A stretch of 36,333 bases of DNA from Patellaria atrata CBS 101060 (taxonomy: Eukaryota), in contig MU006101.1 of the NCBI GenBank assembly GCA_010093705.1, positions 310,001 through 346,333 on the forward strand, read 5' to 3'. The position numbers were made by a program, and so were the translations under genes. A model generated the notes under the pieces. The model was not told where the DNA came from, did not search any database, and saw nothing but the letters and a program-made list of their open reading frames with translations. Within the stretch, counting starts at the first letter, position 1. Each line of letters opens with the position of its first letter. Positions 4,646 through 30,583 of the stretch are shown here, piece by piece.

Positions 4646-5282
4646 TTGGATCTGGATGAAAAGTGAATAGGGAGTCCGTTAGATTTGTCGATTTAAGCTT
4701 AACCTTAAGGGCTTGAATGACTATTAATAAGCTTACAACAGTCTATTTTGACCACAGTATTCCCAAGGAGACATGAGACTATTCAATCTTTCATGAGTAC
4801 ATTAAGAAATCTATTTCGCAAAATTGAATCATTCTGCCACGATAGGTTGGTTGATTTAGAGGTTATAAGAATGAGATAGCAAAGATAGTCTCAGCTCTAC
4901 GTATCCTAGGAGTCCTACTTCTAGGAATAAATGCTAATAAGAGATAAAGGAAAGTCCCTTCGAGCATGGCATAGATATATAGAACAGAGCCACCTCATGA
5001 ACCTCTGGAACTCCCGTTGAGCATATCCAGACATCAAATATGCGAGCAAAATTCAGTCCGTGTTAGCTTAGGGCTATAACCCTTTTGAAGTAAGTACATC
5101 CGATGGTGAAAGCACCCCACAACACCCTTTACCTTGGTCATTCTTAAATTCTCATCTGGAACGGTTTCCACTATCCGCCCTCAGCGAGTCTAATTGAAAA
5201 ATCCTCAAAAAATTCAAAGAACTTACTCCCAGGTTTGGACGTAGTGAATAACAGTAGCTCCGCATTCCCATAGGAGGGCATC

Positions 5283-7331
5283 ATGACGACCAAGCCTTAC
5301 CCGTACAGGAGACTACCCACAGCAACATCAATCCGTCTATTGAGCCTATATACCTATAAAGAGAATAGCCCGAATGGAATCTGCTCCTTGGATATCGTTG
5401 ACATGAACGAGAACCCCCAGTTCGACGCTCTCTCCTATACGTGGGGAGATCCAGTTCCAGAAAAACTGAGATTCGACATCGCCGCTCAGCGTGATTACAA
5501 TGCCAACCAATTCCTAGGCAACACCCCTGTGACGGGCTTCCTCTGCGACGGCGTATTACTTAAGCTAGAGCCCAATCTTCACGATGCGCTTATTGCTCTC
5601 TTGATGCAAAACTCGGCGAGAAATATCCCGCGTCAGCGATATTGGATAGATGCACTTTGTATAAATCAAGCTGACATGGAGGAAAAGTCTCACCAAATCG
5701 CTCTCATGGGCAGGATTTACTCTGTTGCGGAATCTGTGATCGTTTGGCTCGGTTTACAAGACGAGAGCGGCGTCGATGCTCTCAAGTTGATCGTGCAACT
5801 CTCCGAATTTCCTTCTGATTCGTGGGAAAGCATACGCAAGACTTCTGTAAACGTGAAGGAGCCGTCTGGTCATCCGCAAAAGGGTTTGATACCAACTGTC
5901 CGCAAAGAGTGGGTCGCATTTGGACGTCTGATGCTCCGGCGCTGGTTTTTCAGGGTGTGGATTCTACAAGAAGTCATTCTTGCAAAGACAGTCATATTAT
6001 TGTACGGTCATCAGTACATCCAGTGGGAACATGTGGAGCGAGCATGTATGTTCCTGGAACAGACTAACTGGGATGTTTACTTGTGGAGGTGTCTGGAAGA
6101 GGAACATCCCGAAGCAGCATCTTCTGCGGAGTTACTGTTACGACGGTTTACGGTACCTGTAAGGACATACCTCTTAAGGGTAGATCTTGATCTTCGAGAT
6201 ACGCTAAACGTGCTTTACATCAGCCGCTATCAGAATGCTACTGATCAAAGAGATTATGTATACGGCTTGCTTGGTCTTATCAAATTTCCGGGAATCTCTG
6301 ATAACTCAACATTAATCAGAGCAGACTATACAATAACTACGGCTGAAGCTTTTACTAACTTGGCTTGGGCGATCCTCTGCGCTAGTTCTAATCCCGATCA
6401 GAGTCCTCTCGCGCTCCTTTCACTGGTGCAGGATGTATCAATAACAAGAACCGAAGGTCTACCATCCTGGGTACCGGACTGGAGTGTACCAGCGAAGCAT
6501 AACCTTCTAGAATCATTGCGGCCACCAGACTCCTCAAAGCCATTTCGAGTTTGTGGTAATCTCGTTCAAACCCAGGACAACGAGATGTCGTGGACAAGAA
6601 CGCTTCCTGGGCTTTCTAGAATGTCGTTGCAGTCAATGAATTCACTTCATCAGGGAAACCTTTTAACAGTAAATGGCATGTTCGTGGACGAGATAGTCGA
6701 AACTACAGTATCTTATTATACTTTGACGAAGTACTTTAAGCTCGCAAGCGTGCTCGAACTAGTCTCAAAGGTAAGCGTTTCGTCTTATCGTACCGGTGAA
6801 CATATCACACAGGTAATTTGGAAGTGCCTCATAGCGGACTCTGTGGACCGGAAGCCTGCCGAAGCGCACCTAACGGCGATTTTTGCTTGCTGGGTGGTCA
6901 ACAAACTTCAAGGCATTGAAGAAAACTTGGATCAGGGTCTCTTGGGTAGGACAGAGGAACTGATATCGAACTTCGCAACTAATGAAAAATTGGGAGGCTT
7001 TTTGCCTCTGGAAGAGATAAGATCTTTCCCCGCACAGATGGGCCAAGATGTATGGGATAAAACAGCCCAATCGTTCGAAGATGCGCTTGCTTTCAGTTAC
7101 ATTGGAAGGCGAATGTTCAGAACCAAGTTAGGCTTGCTCGGAAGCGGGCCTGAGTCGGTTCGGCCCGGAGACTCGGTTTACATACTATCAGGAGCTAATG
7201 TGCCATTCATACTCCGAGGATCACAGGATACCCGCTATCGTCTCATTGGAGAAACTTATGTCCATGGTATCATGTATGGAGAGTACTTCAATGCAAACGT
7301 TGAGCAACTTCAAGAAATAGAATTAGAGTAA
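5283..7331 (+). CDS. HET-6-like heterokaryon incompatibility protein, 682 aa, intronless
   Basis: Motifs IRLL, FDALSYTWG, WIDALCINQAD..EKSHQIALMGRIYS.A..VIVWLG, WFFRVWILQE, ATDQRDYVYGLLG, LPSWVPDWS and the C-terminal GRRMFRT..G.LG.GP...RPGD...VPFILR...YRLIGETYVHGIM.GE. Confidence 0.93.
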   Translation: MTTKPYPYRRLPTATSIRLLSLYTYKENSPNGICSLDIVDMNENPQFDALSYTWGDPVPEKLRFDIAAQRDYNANQFLGNTPVTGFLCDGVLLKLEPNLHDALIALLMQNSARNIPRQRYWIDALCINQADMEEKSHQIALMGRIYSVAESVIVWLGLQDESGVDALKLIVQLSEFPSDSWESIRKTSVNVKEPSGHPQKGLIPTVRKEWVAFGRLMLRRWFFRVWILQEVILAKTVILLYGHQYIQWEHVERACMFLEQTNWDVYLWRCLEEEHPEAASSAELLLRRFTVPVRTYLLRVDLDLRDTLNVLYISRYQNATDQRDYVYGLLGLIKFPGISDNSTLIRADYTITTAEAFTNLAWAILCASSNPDQSPLALLSLVQDVSITRTEGLPSWVPDWSVPAKHNLLESLRPPDSSKPFRVCGNLVQTQDNEMSWTRTLPGLSRMSLQSMNSLHQGNLLTVNGMFVDEIVETTVSYYTLTKYFKLASVLELVSKVSVSSYRTGEHITQVIWKCLIADSVDRKPAEAHLTAIFACWVVNKLQGIEENLDQGLLGRTEELISNFATNEKLGGFLPLEEIRSFPAQMGQDVWDKTAQSFEDALAFSYIGRRMFRTKLGLLGSGPESVRPGDSVYILSGANVPFILRGSQDTRYRLIGETYVHGIMYGEYFNANVEQLQEIELE

Positions 7332-17700: not shown

Positions 17701-20533
17701 GATGATTATCTATATGGTCGCTGGAACCCTAAAGTCTGAAGTTTGGATAGTTGATGCAGATGGAAGGTCCCAACGCTGGAGAAACGGTTCAGTCGCGAAG
17801 AGCTCTCGGTTCTTCGAAATCCTTCCCTGCAACGACAGGGAGAGAAGTGGGAGAGCTCCAATATATGGCATAGCTACTCGCTGATCAATAGTCATTTCGG
17901 GTGCACGGCGTTTGGAAGATACAGGACCTCCTCTCTATCCAATGCTGCGTTCTGCAAGGACCAGATCGAAGCTCCTAACCAATTGCAATTCTAGCTTGGA
18001 TAAATCAACGGTTAAATGGTCCCGCGCCGATCTGGGGTGCTCAAGCTTCCCCTTGTTCGGTGAATAAGCTCCACCTTCTGTCACCACCGACGCCTTGAAC
18101 TTCTTGAACAGCGGGAGAACTTTCTTTGGCGTTTGCTTAGTTTCGTGGCTAACAGTAAACTACAAATTATTATTCGTTCTACCCTCTACTGTCTGGGAGC
18201 GGGATAGAACGTCTACATGTCAGAACGATGTAATGGAGGAGTTGGGAATAAGAACATCAACAACTACCGAAGAGCCTGTAAGAGCGCCACACTTCGAATT
18301 TGATGTCAAATTTTTCCAACTGACGGTAGATTACAAATGCCGGGATAGTTGAGCTTAGGTACAGGTATTTCCCCAACAGGCTCATCAACTTTGCCCGAAT
18401 GCCTGGTGTAGAGATATATGTAGGGTCGAGACCAAGAACCAGAAACAGCCTACAGTTATGTGGGACCCCTCGTTGGATCGGTCTTCTGGAAGGGTGAGAT
18501 TCACGAGATGTAAGGGCTGCAAAGGCGACAATGTCGAATCAGAAGACATCTGTCAGATGAGTTTATACTACATCCACGCCGAATCTAACCCAGCCTATGA
18601 TCATTTCTGCCTGAATTGTTGCGCTACCTTACTCGTTAATGTTACTGTGTTGCTTGAGTGCTGATAGAATATGGGCCACGCTTCATCAGCTTGTTGGCAT
18701 TATTATTAGAATTATGTCTCTATTACAGTAAAACTTCCTTCACTGCTAGTAAGGCAGTGGGAGGCCTATGTAAAGAAACTCTTTGGATCATGGATCTGAC
18801 ACCATCACTTACATCTGCAGATAAAACATAATAATGGGGGATTGTATTCATCTTTTGCTTGGACAAATTTCCCAAAACCATCCCCTTATAGCAATAGTAT
18901 AATCGACAGCTCCCTGAAAAGGGATTTATGTGTATAGGAAGTTGCGCAATAGCTTAAAGGCTGCATGCGCAGTATTGTAGGTAATGCAATACAATGGGAT
19001 TAAAAAAAAAAATCAAAAAATCGACAGCTCTAAGTAGGCGAAATGTACACCTACTAACCAACTGCGAACCCAACTTACTTTTGTAGATAAACTGTTATCA
19101 ACCATAGAAAATCTCCAATCTTCAAATATATGTGGAGTCAAAGCAGCGCCTTAAAACTTATCAATCTCCAGCAAAATCTGGTTGTCCGGGATAACTGCTT
19201 TTTATGTTTTTTATGTTTGCGCACGCCCCGTGCTTTAGAAGTCTCATTGTCTATGAGGTTGCATTTTTCATCTCTCTACTCTCCTGTCATCTCTCCTCTT
19301 ATTAGGAGGTTCCCGGATTATAAAAGGAATGTCGTCGCATCCGCTCAGAATTTCTTCGCTGCGCTACGTGTACAGTACAGTACATTCACCGCGACTTTTT
19401 ACACCCAGCTCTCTAGGAAAGGATGTAACACCTTTCTCAAGGCTGGTCTTCGACCTTACCTTTGATAACTCTCTTCGCCATTATCACTTTAACTGGCATA
19501 TACCGCGAGTTCCAGGTATGCGTTTATCAGGCAACCATTTAATTCTAGCAATCGTAGGATCTAAATATTCTGTCAACTTTTCAGGCATCACAGTTTCATG
19601 AAAGGACTGTGACAGAATAGTCTCACGCTCTGCCGTGTATTGAAGGTTTGGGGGGCGGAATCTCTCATATTTCTCCATTCGCTAAACCCCCTTGAAGAAG
19701 GCTTCGAGCGCCAAATCTCTTGGTAGCAACAAAGACAAAAGACCCAGAGGATGACCGGGGTAACGCTCAGCTGAAATGTTTCGCATGGGTTAATGAAAGA
19801 ATTTATACTATACTCTCTTCTTTATCTCTATTTACAAATGCTTCTTCTAACTTCACCTTCACTCACTCATGCATCTCCTTTCCTCCCTCTGCTTGTTTTA
19901 GTCAAAGCTAGAGCAATTGTTCAAATTGAAGTCAGTCGAAGCCTCAATTCTGTTCTTGCAAATATACGTCACTCGTTCAATGAATATACCAATGAGAATG
20001 TGTATTACACGTATGGTTCATGCTGCGCCAAGCGGAAAGATGACTCTCAACAACTCATAGCTTCAACCAACGGAGAGACTCACGATAGACTCGTCTGGAA
20101 GATCGCCAATCACCTGGAGAGCTCAGGGTGCGTCTCTGCATAACATGATGATAACCAATTACTTGGTCGAAGCGGCCCCAAAGAGTTATCGCGTCCGGAT
20201 CTTCGAAACCCTGAGCTCCGAAAGAAGAGGAAAAGGTCCATTAAGAGGTCGACTCCGTACACAGTTGTAATGAGCAAGAGAGCGACATTGACACAGCTGG
20301 TCCCTGGTTCGATGGAGTGACTCTTCTCGAAGACAATATGACCGCGGTGGATACAGCTGCGGCTAAAGCTAAAGATATTGCTATTATTGGAGCAGGTATG
20401 GCGGGCTTGATGATCTGGACGTGCTTATCAAGCTTAGGTATGAACATCATTCGCATCGTTGAAGCAAGCCAACGCTTGGGGGGTCGTGTTCATACTGCTT
20501 ACTTTGGCGATCCATCAGAACGGCAATATCAAG

Positions 20534-20820
20534 ATAAGTTATTGAGTTCTTTTTTCTTTCTTTTTTCTTTCTCTACCGTGGCATTCCTCAGCTGTTGTAC
20601 GCTCAACCTTTGAAAGCAGCCGAGTCTACTGTATAGTCAACCTGAGAAGGTACGAAGAACTTCTAACCGTACCAATCAATAAACTTTAAAAATGTCGGAT
20701 ATTTACCCGTATTCTTGGCTCGAATGCTCGAGATATCTTTCAATAAAATTATAGACGCTGAGGAATGCCGACTATGGCAGGAAAAGAGATATAACCTAAG
20801 AGTATGCTAACAATTACCAC
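20534..20820 (+). other. Putative AT-AC intron (287 nt) with U2-type signals
   Basis: Begins ATAAGT, has branch site TGCTAAC at 20805-20811 and ends CCAC. Exact removal gives CAA G|AA ATG GGT CCA ATG CGC = QEMGPMR. Confidence 0.65.
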
Positions 20821-21601
20821 AAATGGGTCCAATGCGCTTCCCACATATCATCCGATATGCAGGCACGAATGAAAGCCTTGAAATCCAAGACCAGAAACTT
20901 ACGTTCGATTTCGTCAAGGAGGTCAATCGGCTCAATTCGAACGATCCAAATGTGACTGTTAATCTGATTCCGTGGATCCAAAACAGCCCGAATGGACTCA
21001 CCCACCGCTCTATTTGTCGTACTCAAGACGGGACAATACCCACCATTTCAGAAATCGTTGCGAATGCATCTCTGGGGCCTCCGCTCATGATACCTGATGC
21101 TGAAACGACCGAGTTACTGACAAAGTTGACAACTGAGCTCTTTAACCCAGCTTTCATTAGTGAACTTTTCAACAACATGTTCCAAGCACATAATGAATGG
21201 TTAACCTCTGGTCTTGGTGGACAAGGAGAGAACTGGTCTGAATTTGGACATATGCACAACTATCTTGGATACTCGCTCAATGCCATCGACCAAGCACTGG
21301 AACAGCTGTATGGAGGACCGGCAGGGTCATTCCGGGAGCTCCTAACGGAACTCAACTACTTTTCCGCGACAGATTGGAAGACAATTGACGGGGGTCTTTC
21401 TAGGCTACCCGAAGCGTTTCATCCATTGGTTGACAATATCACGACTTAAAACCGTAAAACTAGTCAGATCCGATACGAAGATGGCAAAGTACATCTGGGT
21501 TGGAAGGATAACTTCCTAGATCCGGGATATTAGACTGAGACTTTCGACTATGCGATTTCCACGGTGCTGTTCCCAATTCTGCGTTCCTGGCGTCTTCCAG
21601 C

Positions 21602-21772
21602 TGTCACGGGGTAGACCCGATAGGTATATGCCTTGGATGATCCAGCGGCTTAGTCATACTATACTTCAGTAGAACAGCATATGCTGTCTCAACACTTTCT
21701 TTCCTTAAGTCTAAGCTTCATGTACATATAGGAATATACCTTTCCGCTTTCATCTGAGGTTGAGCCATGACA
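21602..21772. mobile_element. Solo LTR (171 bp) inserted in the oxidase coding sequence
   Basis: TG...CA ends, inverted termini TGTCACGG / CCATGACA (7 of 8 match), and a 5-bp duplication CCAGC at 21597-21601 and 21773-21777. Removal restores the frame WRLPAFNPTIQSAI. Confidence 0.85.
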
Positions 21773-23010
21773 CCAGCTTTCAATCCGACAATTCAAAGTG
21801 CTATAGCTACATATCCATACGCAACGGCATGCAAAGTGGTCCTCCAATTCCGGACGAGATTCTGGGAGCATTTGAAGAATCCGATCTACGGTAGTTGTTC
21901 GACTACCACGGATATCCCAGGGATTGGTACTGTCTGCTGTATGTCTCGACTCACTTAATCACATATGTTCCGTTCCATGCTATTCTTACCGCTTCTATAA
22001 AGCTCAACTAACTTAACTAGACCCATCTTATGACATCAACTCCACTGGCCCTGGTGTCATGCTCGCTCAATATACTACCCCTAATATGGGCGACACCTTC
22101 GTTTTCTGATCTGAAAAGCAACACGTCGAGTACGTCCTCTCCGCCATTTTCGAGATTCACGGAGACATTGCTCCCGTGCAGTATACTGGTCAGTACAACA
22201 GGCGCCGCTGGGCGCTCGATGAGTACGAAACCGTGGGATGGGCGATGGCGCCGGTTGGAGCGCGTTCGAATCGGTTAAAAGCGTTCTTTGAAACGGAGAA
22301 GAATGTAATATTTGCGGGTGAAGGGGCTAGTTACACGAGAGCGTGGAGTAAGTACTTTGAGCGGCATATATAAGGTGAGACTTCCAATGCTGACTGGATT
22401 GTAGTTGCGAACGCTTTGGAGAGTGGAGTTAGGGCTAGTGTGCAGCTTTTACTTGGTGAGTCCCCTATAAATCAGATATCATTACAGAGAAGTGGATGGC
22501 TAGGTGGATCAGTATCTAACAGACGAATGTATAGCCCTATAATATTAAAGAATGCTTTGGGTTAGCGGCTTATCGCGCTCTAATTCGCTAGAGGACTGTT
22601 CATTATAGAAGAATTATAAAGCTGACAGGTTTAGCAAGTGTTGTCCTAAGACTTTAGCGTATCGCACTCCACGTTAACTACGTAAGCAAACTTTCGCCAA
22701 ACTTAATATCCGATCGGACGCTAGGGAATTCCCTGCCGGAATATATGAAATACTTAAAACACCATCTATATGCAAAATTGATAATGCATTTCTTGGGATC
22801 ACAAGCAACAAATTCGACGAACGTCTCTGATTTAAATCCCGAATAAGACTTGGAGCATTGACCTTCCACAAATGAAGCAGGCCCATTCTTTACAAACTAC
22901 TTTCCCAAGGTCCAGTTTATCACGATCATGGACTCACTTAAGAATATGTGATCTTCCACTGGTTTCAAGTCTGTGGTTGAGGATTTGTTAGACGCTGCCC
23001 TTCGTTCAAG

Positions 23011-28116: not shown

Positions 28117-30583
28117 ATGGGTACTGGTAAAAAGGAAGCAAATAGGAAGGCAAATCTGCCTTCCGGAGGAGATGGCATGGCCAACGTCAAAGTTAAAGGC
28201 GAGAATTTCTATCGGTATAATCCCTCGATTCCATTCTACAACTGGGCTACGGTTAACGAATCATGGCAGGAGTGCGAAGAAGGTCAAGACGCTTAATATA
28301 TTCAAGGATGGAAAGCGTATGTTTAACCTGGGGGATGCGGAATCCAACTTCTTACGGCGGCTGAATAATTTCTAGCACAACGTAATGCGTCTGGCAAGAT
28401 CACGAAAGCGGGGTCCTACCAGTCTCGCGATGCACCGATTGCTCGGGTAGAACCTAATAGGAAGTGGTTTACGAACTCAAGAGTCATCTCACAAGATGCT
28501 CTGGCCGCATTTCGGGGAGCTGTAGCAGAGCAGAGTTCCGATCCGTATTCCTGTATGGCTTCTACCTAACAGCTCAGTTGCGTCGATACTTATCACTTCA
28601 TAGACCTACTCAAGCAAAACAAACTTCCCATGAGTCTAATCCGGGATTCGTCGACTAAGAACGGTCTCAAACAACATCAAGCCAAAATGACAGTTGAAAC
28701 TGCCCCATTCAGCGATACATTTGGACCTAAAGCTCAACGTAAGAGGGTCAAGATTGGAGTGAGCTCACTGGAGGATCTAGCAGGAGAGACGGAAAAGATG
28801 CATGATACATACCTCGATCGTTTAGAACAAGCAAGACTTCTGAGTGGCAACTCTGGTGCTGATGCGGACAGGATAGACGATGACTCCCAAGACGGAACAC
28901 TGACTACAGCACGCGAAGCGATATTCTCTAAAGGCCAGTCGCGGCGAATCTATAACGAACTTTATAAAGTAATCGATTCCTCAGACGTTGTGTTGCACGT
29001 CCTGGACGCGAGAGACCCGGACGGAACTCGATGTCGAAGCGTAATAAAATATATACGTGAGGAGCACCCTCATAAGCATTTGGTTTTTGTTTTGAACAAA
29101 TCGGATCTTGTTCCCACCAACGTTGCGGTAAGTCTAAGAACTTCGAATTTCCTTTTTTCACTACCAAGTCTCCCTTATTCCTATGCTCTCCGAACGACTA
29201 CAGCAAGACGGTATCTCCTTAGCTTCCAACTTAGCAGGGATATTTGTCATAGTCCTACAATCGTCCAAGAAACCGTGAAATCGTGAAATCTTGAATATCC
29301 ATAGTTAAGTCAAGGTTACTTCCCGTACTACGTACGACTCGATGGAAGATACCTGTTACAACTGTGGGAGAATAACTACCTCCGCCCCTCTCAATGCCGT
29401 ACTGGTTGCGAGAAGATCTGGCTCGTTTTGAGCTGGATCACCAAGGAGCGTAGATGTTTCATTTATGAGTTGAGGAACAACGCTGTCTTTGGCAGCCCCA
29501 TGTTGTTTTTCATAGTAATGATCCATACAACCTTTTGTGTCACTTACTAATTTTTCTGTTTATTACTACTTAAGGGTTTATTTAGCGTTAGAGGCTAATC
29601 AATTTTTGTAGGCATCGTGGGTACGGAATTTGTCGAAAGAATATCCGACTTTGGCATTTCATTCGTCAATTAAAAATAGTTTCGGAAAAGGTTCGCTGAT
29701 TTCCCTACTACGACAATTTTCCTCATTACATTCCGACCGCAAACAGATATCCGTAGGACTTGTCGGATATCCGAATACAGGAAAGTCCAGTATCATCAAT
29801 ACATTACGAGCGAAGAAGGTATGTAATGTTGCACCGATTGCAGGGGAGACCAAAGTGTGGCAATATATCACTTTGATGAAACGGATTTACCTGATCGACT
29901 GTCCTGGAATCGTACCTCCAAACCAAAACGACACCGAAGAAGATCTCCTGCTCCGTGGGGTTGTTCGTGTCGAAAACGTTCAGAATCCTGAGCAGTATGT
30001 TGCAGCCGCCCTTCGTAAATGCAAACAACATCACGTCGAAAGGACGTACGATTTGAAAGGTTGGACATCAGCTACTGAATTCTTGGAACTGCTAGCAAGA
30101 AAAGGAGGAAGACTGTTGAAAGGCGGTGAACCAGACTTGGACGGCTGTGCGAAGATGGTACTCAACGACTTCCTAAGAGGCAAGATCCCTTGGTTTACAC
30201 CACCGCCAAAGGTCGAGGGAGACGGTGCAGTGAAGGAGGTTGGGATTGCTGGGAGAATAGGCAGACTGGGCGAGATGGGAATGAAGAGGAGAAGGGAAGA
30301 AGACCAGGATGAAAAAGAAGTTACCGAAGACACCGATGGTGTTGTCGAAGATACTAATGTTGATGAGGATGAGGATTTCAATGGATTTGATAACGAAACG
30401 GAAGCTCCTGATATCGACGACACGTCTTCACGTTCAGACGACATAGAAGGCGACGAGGAAGCCTCTATAGGGAATGACGCTACCGATGTAGAATCAGCAG
30501 GTGAGGGGGATGAGTCGGTCATGGAAGATGTCAAAGCAATATCTGCGGTTTTGGCAGATGCCAGAAAGAAAAGGAAGGGATAG
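28117..30583 (+). CDS. NOG2: Nucleolar GTP-binding protein 2 (pre-60S GTPase); exons 28117-28214, 28270-28316, 28376-28552, 28604-29127, 29612-30583
   Basis: MGTGKKE...[80 protein letters not shown]; four in-phase GT-AG introns. Confidence 0.97.
29296..29532 (+). ncRNA. snR191: Intronic box H/ACA snoRNA, snR191/U19 homologue guiding two pseudouridines in LSU rRNA helix 69
   Basis: Lies in the 484-nt NOG2 intron 4. Hairpin 1 has pocket strands AGTCA (29308-12) and GTTAC (29355-59), 14 nt before H box AGAATA (29369-74). Hairpin 2 has pocket strands GAGT (29467-70) and TAGT (29513-16), 14 nt before ACA (29527-29). The 5' end is approximate. Confidence 0.88.

Follow-up and report, generated by a model that had tools for sequence, protein, structure and literature searches.

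A probable U2-type AT-AC intron in an L-amino acid oxidase pseudogene of Patellaria atrata

The oxidase gene and its intron

The window, i.e. the whole stretch of 36,333 nucleotides of the Patellaria atrata genome that was analysed, contains a gene encoding an L-amino acid oxidase of the type found in Pezizomycotina. The gene is interrupted by an intron with AT-AC ends. The following features were assigned to it:

19838..22519, forward strand: L-amino acid oxidase pseudogene (flavin amine oxidase, PF01593), host of the intron
20141..20143, forward strand: premature TAA
20531..20539, forward strand: 5' splice site AAG/ATAAGT, with 8 of 9 pairs (positions -3 to +6) to the 5' end of the genome's U1
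20534..20820, forward strand: AT-AC intron of 287 nt, phase 1, interrupting the Glu codon of YQEMGPMRFP; the metagenomic relative L104 has an intron with these ends at this site
20805..20811, forward strand: U2-type branch site TGCTAAC; the branch A is at 20810, 10 nt from the end of the intron
20815..20820, forward strand: tandem TAC-CAC at the 3' end (AC positions taken from the sequence)
21447..21449, forward strand: premature TAA
21531..21533, forward strand: premature TAG
21602..21772, forward strand: 171-nt repeat, TG...CA, solo-LTR-like, with a 5-bp target duplication, inside the coding sequence
21939..22020, forward strand: ordinary GT-AG intron with intact ends
22107..22109, forward strand: premature TGA
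22348..22404, forward strand: ordinary GT-AG intron with intact ends
22456..22480, forward strand: remnant of the last intron, with the GTGAGT donor kept and the 3' part and about 9 codons missing (comparison with the intact relative P0004)

The pseudogene status given in a preliminary description of this DNA is borne out by four stops in 671 codons, a frameshift near 20277, the repeat insertion and the deletion at the last intron. The 171-nt repeat has 7 of 8 terminal inverted bases and a high read depth, and is present in at least 40 genomic copies at 88-100% identity (40 of the 98 candidates were scored and all of them matched). A second high-depth repeat lies upstream of the oxidase gene, at about 18912-19056 of the window.

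The public gene model of this species (P0001, Patellaria atrata, Dothideomycetes) is 99% identical to the second exon and uses a different, wrong GT-AG pair by which the EMGPMRFP motif is dropped, so that intact orthologues with an AT-AC intron are probably mis-annotated as well. The genome's own paralogue (L002) has no intron at the site. The dropped motif is near-invariant, continuing as [ED][MVL]G[PA][MLQ]R in 324 of the 354 anchored proteins (511 proteins examined), and its Arg is presumably the substrate-binding residue.

The upstream exon ends in ...TATCAAG and the intron in ...TTACCAC, after which AAATGGGT follows; the AT-AC cut yields ...ERQYQEMGPMRFPHII. When the sequence was re-read, the ATAAGT start, the CCAC end and the TGCTAAC branch site with its A 10 nt from the end were found exactly as previously described. 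Excision of AT...AC restores the frame and the Glu codon, again as had been claimed, and none of the 234 GT/GC-AG pairs (donors 20501-20760, acceptors to 20830) gives an open frame into MGPMRFP. The first AG 3' of the branch A is at 20861, past the motif. Sliding the cut by one base (TA...CA) gives an identical mRNA. At the tandem 3' end it is the distal CAC that restores Glu, and use of the proximal TAC (20815-20817, 3 nt earlier) would give Ala-Gln instead. The distance from the branch A to the intron end is 10 nt in the window and in L104, and 9 and 11 nt in the two intact GT-AG introns of the host gene.

The sole mismatch of the donor to U1 is at position +1 (the U1 5' end was taken from L125). 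On the exon side U1 pairs better with the AT-AC donor than with the GT-AG donors of the same gene, as is expected if the rest of the site compensates for +1. The 287-nt intron also contains inner GT donors and a second CTAAC. No second genomic copy of it was found at E <= 1 (the one match is the intron itself), and no Rfam family reached its gathering score inside it.

Reads from two sequencing runs of a single sample, which was probably DNA, span the site, and no alternative letter is listed at 20534 or 20820. These uniform reads argue against an assembly slip at the intron ends; the two runs may be of the source sample and are therefore not independent support. They contain no joint at the intron site and, as probable DNA, are neutral on splicing.

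Spliceosomal components and proposed mechanism

AT-AC ends combined with phase 1 would be typical for a minor intron. The donor had previously been described as not of U12 type, and this holds: ATAAGT does not match ATATCC and is the consensus of U2-type AT-AC donors (PMC5029451; papers are cited here by PMC number or DOI for the extracts of them that were available). Neither the window intron nor that of L104 has the U12-type donor ATATCC or branch CCTTAAC, and both have a CTRAC branch. Extracts of PMC10639083 report no minor introns in Ascomycota. Searches of the genome for spliceosomal RNAs gave two matches over the cut-off for U2, two for U6 and five U1-like matches under the cut-off. In this search, which ran without a positive-control genome, U11 and U12 had no match in the genome and U6atac had one weak match under the cut-off, lying on a U6-like copy, an outcome in line with the lack of minor introns reported for Ascomycota.

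The U6 snRNA gene (L124:1500-1650, G000:C1) has an intact ACAGAGA box and an mRNA-type intron, GTAAGT...GCTAAC...TAG, inside it. The U6-like copy (L123:1500-1600, G000:C1) is intronless, has a shortened ACAGAGA box together with other changes, and can be a pseudogene or a variant. The five U1-like matches are L125, L126, L127 and two further places in G000; the three that were read have a common 5' end, differ in their bodies and carry U at position 11.

In the mechanism that we propose, U1 would bind the A-start donor since all the other positions from -3 to +6 match, U2 would bind the CTRAC branch site and the major spliceosome would branch to A(+1). In the exon ligation step A(+1) would pair with C(-1) where G(+1) normally pairs with G(-1), and A(-2) could still pair with the branch A and thereby select the AC 10 nt past the branch. 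The A-C pair has been modelled as tolerated in the yeast P complex, in which the pair itself was not observed (10.1101/212811, in part), and among yeast mutants only GT-AG is a more efficient pair than AT-AC (as cited in the available part of PMC6726248). The efficiency of AT-AC splicing is lower than that of GT-AG (PMC1557818, extract).

Relatives at the same site

Metagenome contigs were scanned for the coding motif that follows the junction, which gave at least 118 stretches. Among the matches listed, 74 of 118 were oxidase homologues by tblastn, and the 44 without a hit were dropped. The site is uninterrupted in 72 of these 74 homologous loci among the matches listed; one of the 72 has just 6 nt upstream and some may be cDNA. 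A first scan, based on protein, had given 41 pattern matches of which none was confirmed.

Locus L104 has a 46-nt intron at the exact base of the window's intron, CAAG/ATAGGT...GCTGAC...CAC/AG ATG, with the donor AAG/ATAGGT. It is known from 622 nt, the 3' two thirds of the gene lying outside. Excision gives 193 aa with no stop or gap; the exons have no stops in 84 + 106 codons (190 codons seen) and are identical to P0004 at 61 of 83 and 70 of 104 residues. The first part of a gene of the L104 type (P0218, 261 aa) is likewise open and recurs identically in a second assembly (P0296). Only 9 of the 50 four-fold degenerate sites are alike in L104 and the window, i.e. synonymous sites are saturated, so the terminal A and C are common to the two where neutral sites have lost their resemblance. 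The window and L104 are the two AT-AC copies known as DNA.

Within the AT-AC intron of L104 a canonical 39-nt GT-AG pair is nested (L104:259-297). A cut there would be unproductive, since it changes the frame, and may compete with the productive one. In the same locus 4 of the 20 canonical pairs keep the frame, all with poor donors and with loss of the Glu. The locus further has a strong GT donor at +5 and, 3 nt short of the AC, a CAG.

Locus L083 has a GT-AG intron (1866-1999) one base 5' of the AT-AC site, between the Gln and Glu codons. It forms a near-intron pair with the AT-AC site, by sliding or by separate gain.

Protein databases gave a second view of the site. Where a gene caller has ignored an intron, the predicted protein runs on into it, and the amino acid that follows YQ then shows which donor is present (Asp with G/A[TC], Gly with G/G[TC]). 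Ends read in this way are back-inferred from protein, in which the codon behind an Asp can be GAT or GAC and that behind a His CAC or CAT, and uninterrupted NCBI proteins are uninformative on the presence of introns. In the 354 anchored proteins the residue is D in 7, G in 20 and another in 3. The 7 D rows represent five distinct junctions: the window, the L104 type, P0205 (=P0209), P0216 and P0225. Donor positions +3 to +5 in these five read as DK, DR, DE, DM and DM, all of which allow a G at +5; the U12 reading, DI, occurs in none of the five.

The proteins P0205 and P0209 translate the whole intron and the shifted next exon, YQ-D-E-F...V-L-T-L-P-H-R-W-D-P-C (...VLTLPH-RWDPCAS), from which we infer an intron that starts with A[TC], has a branch compatible with CTRAC and finishes in CA[CT], with AG ATG GG following. 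Taken together, the D rows suggest that the donor begins with A in as many as three further genes; P0216 is ambiguous, as a canonical GT donor within the Met codon would fit too, and in P0225 the donor side alone is visible. Asp takes the place of Glu in a few uninterrupted relatives (P0078, P0228, P0265 and P0267).

The 20 G rows comprise 12 of the Verrucariales type, 6 of the Cytospora type and 2 from another oxidase subfamily. Rows of the Verrucariales type belong to clusters with Endocarpon pusillum members, and P0003 gives the matching L-E end; in the Cytospora type a single read-through (P0495) has both the G start and a T-E (CAG/AG) end. These proteins point to an ordinary GT-AG intron at the AT-AC site in Verrucariales and Cytospora. 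No further read-through was found in members of 10 Chaetothyriales-side clusters. The oxidase relative P0362 has an in-frame insert translated directly after YQE.

The preliminary description had looked to intact orthologues for conserved AT...AC ends. L104, with such ends at the same base, bears this out. The ends are not shared by all relatives: other lineages have GT-AG and most have no intron at the site.

History of the site

One subfamily (support 100/99) holds the Verrucariales genes together with L104, the P0205 group and the window's gene. Within it, a group supported at 98/95 is made up of the window's gene, three intron-less genes and the P0205 group, the nearest intron-bearing group to the window's gene. 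L104 is sister to Herpotrichiellaceae genes (89/88); in trees made from exon 1 only it falls inside them, and it becomes their sister after the exon-2 columns are added. A tree with the five AT rows as one clade was rejected (p-AU 0.027 and 0.016), the window row being a long branch. It follows that AT-AC ends arose either once early, with reversion in Verrucariales and loss in most lineages, or twice.

The presence of GT-AG in outgroup oxidases speaks for GT-AG as ancestral; the exception would be repeated gain of the site, and its patchy distribution leaves room for that. The simplest history would be that AT-AC derives from GT-AG by a switch of both ends, and this could have taken place once near the base of the subfamily, with reversion in Verrucariales and loss in most others, or twice.

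A wider reading is offered tentatively and we regard it as possible rather than probable. An orthologous U2 intron, lying within the active-site motif of fungal L-amino acid oxidases, would have exchanged both terminal bases together, G-G for A-C, at least twice, or a single time followed by reversion, across ascomycete classes, and the AT-AC cut, as the only productive one, would have been kept by selection, perhaps throttling the output of the oxidase against unproductive GT-AG sites. If this were true it would be a natural covariation of the first and last nucleotide pair, and AT-AC II introns would arise from GT-AG introns instead of being relics.

Real intron or decay

The four stops correspond to about 0.05-0.06 changes per site (0.013-0.16), from which decay of both ends of an ordinary intron, G to A at +1 and G to C at -1, has a probability of about 3e-4 (2e-5 to 2.5e-3). 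The AT-AC share of annotated fungal introns is about 0.02% (~2e-4) by our own arithmetic on the figures in the extract of PMC7072748 Table 2 (46 at 10.7% against 208,522 at 9.2%). As the two values are of the same order, the window taken alone leaves a real AT-AC intron and double decay about even. The parsimony argument previously put forward against double decay is thus weak from the window by itself, and it is the relatives that decide for a real intron. Since the independent locus L104 has the same ends at the same base, with a U2-type donor and branch, the intron ends predate the death of the host gene, which supports the earlier suggestion of a real non-canonical intron older than the pseudogene. 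In our view the intron very probably belongs, as a genuine member, to the U2-type AT-AC ('AT-AC II') class and was inherited from a living gene, its splicing being deduced from the sequence. In the P. atrata genome the intron is a relic within a pseudogene; in relatives an AT-AC intron is probably working.

Post-mortem decay of an ordinary GT-AG intron could draw on the drift of the gene by about 5% per site, on GT-AG being present at the site in relatives and on the fact that ~3e-4 per intron is not negligible across many scanned windows. Nevertheless it would require the same double change independently in L104 and an A start in the P0205 group. The host gene's remaining intact introns also retain their ends; we regard decay as close to refuted and give it very little credence. 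A less improbable alternative, which we still consider unlikely, is that the shared ends barely work: the switch would have crippled splicing, the AT-AC copies would be dying or dead, and their transcripts would be mostly retained or mis-spliced at nearby canonical sites. The window copy is indeed dead, AT-AC is the less efficient pair in the source cited above (PMC1557818), and L104 offers the strong GT donor at +5 and the CAG 3 nt before the AC. However, the exons of L104 and the 261 aa of P0218/P0296 are open and conserved despite saturated synonymous sites, and donors starting with A are seen again in three genes that form a group of their own.

The ends might also become canonical in RNA, by two-step (stwintron-like) splicing or by A-to-I editing, and the inner GT donors and second CTAAC of the 287-nt intron and the nested 39-nt pair of L104 would be compatible with this. 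Removal of an inner intron cannot supply a G at +1 or a 3' AG, however, and in L104 it would leave 7 nt behind; editing could mimic a G at +1 but could not change the last C to G. Such a route is very improbable, although somewhat less so than decay. Least credible of all is a U12-type (minor) intron or its relic. The AT-AC ends and phase 1 of the window intron would suit it, but the donors are not ATATCC and the branch sites are CTRAC, not CCTTAAC; U11 and U12 had no match in the search without a positive control, U6atac was not over the cut-off and Ascomycota are described as lacking minor introns (PMC10639083, extract). The patchiness of the position, uninterrupted in 72 of 74 loci among the matches listed, also stands against it.

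Comparison with known AT-AC introns

As a probable AT-AC II intron, the window intron joins an established class. Extracts of PMC1557818 count 15 AT-AC II introns in human, 6 in mouse and 3 in fly, and its Table 1 gives 24 U2-type AT-AC introns among 608,562 U2 introns, interpreted as a vanishing relic. The examples named there (Sheth et al. 2006, PMC1557818) are human SCN4A/SCN5A, TAF2 and chicken parvalbumin, and xylanase genes of filamentous fungi are hypothesised. As far as these extracts go, the class is like the window intron in its AT...AC ends, ATAAGT-type donor, U2-type branch and ends kept in orthologues. The present case differs in belonging to a new gene family (fungal L-amino acid oxidase), in being a candidate by sequence and in having GT-AG or an empty site elsewhere.

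The same swap of first and last base from G-G to A-C is known from yeast A1/C-last suppressor introns (Parker and Siliciano 1993, as cited in the available parts of PMC5029451, PMC6726248 and 10.1101/212811). As described there, the yeast suppressors were engineered, whereas the oxidase case is a natural coding intron kept across synonymous saturation. In Saccharomyces cerevisiae the nested AT-AC junction of RPL30 and the SUT635 protointron are, like the window intron, ascomycete cases of AT-AC without a minor spliceosome (PMC5029451, PMC6726248). In the extracts of these papers the events are minor or non-coding (RPL30, about 1-2% of mRNA), whereas AT-AC in the oxidase is the sole cut that gives the conserved protein.

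RNA-seq surveys, each seen in extract, report AT-AC for 69 of 14,305 junctions in Trichoderma longibrachiatum, 13 AT-AC junctions (0.014%) in Ganoderma lingzhi (PMC11590231) and AT-AC among the rare junction types in Fusarium graminearum; AT-AC junctions were also counted in C. elegans (PMC3033335, extract). The fungal surveys resemble the window in that AT-AC junctions occur in Dikarya. In the extracts they are counts or single validations in which no orthologous position is followed across lineages, unlike the oxidase site. Our literature search, with supplements and subscription journals outside its scope, found no report of an oxidase AT-AC intron, nor one of a fungal position with both a GT-AG and an AT-AC form of a U2 intron.

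What is new here is a natural pair of G-G and A-C ends at one orthologous position, and a three-state orthologous position with a paired terminal-base change is uncommon. AT-AC, GT-AG and empty states at one site, in fungi without a minor spliceosome, make the direction and the route of the two-end switch testable on a tree. Its 46 nt would make the L104 intron a small, naturally occurring substrate in which to study the A(+1)-C(-1) pair, which in the available part of 10.1101/212811 is only modelled.

The rest of the genome and of the window

A genome-wide search for an AT-AC pattern found 24 places, fewer than the 37 found with the reversed control. Not one of the 24 was a clear junction of two exons, so there is no evidence of a genome rich in AT-AC introns. 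GH10 xylanase genes were examined since xylanases are the published fungal lead; the three in this genome, read by eye, have GT-AG introns only and none of AT-AC type.

Two long genes with a single ORF lie at 198-2462 and 5274-7331 of the window, the first with a HET domain (PF06985) and the second similar to it by eye. The H/ACA snoRNA snR191 (RF01263, 58.9 bits) is found at 29297-29532 (forward strand), within the long intron that a NOG2-like GTPase gene has at about 29129-29612; budding yeast presumably has the same arrangement of snR191 in the NOG2 intron.
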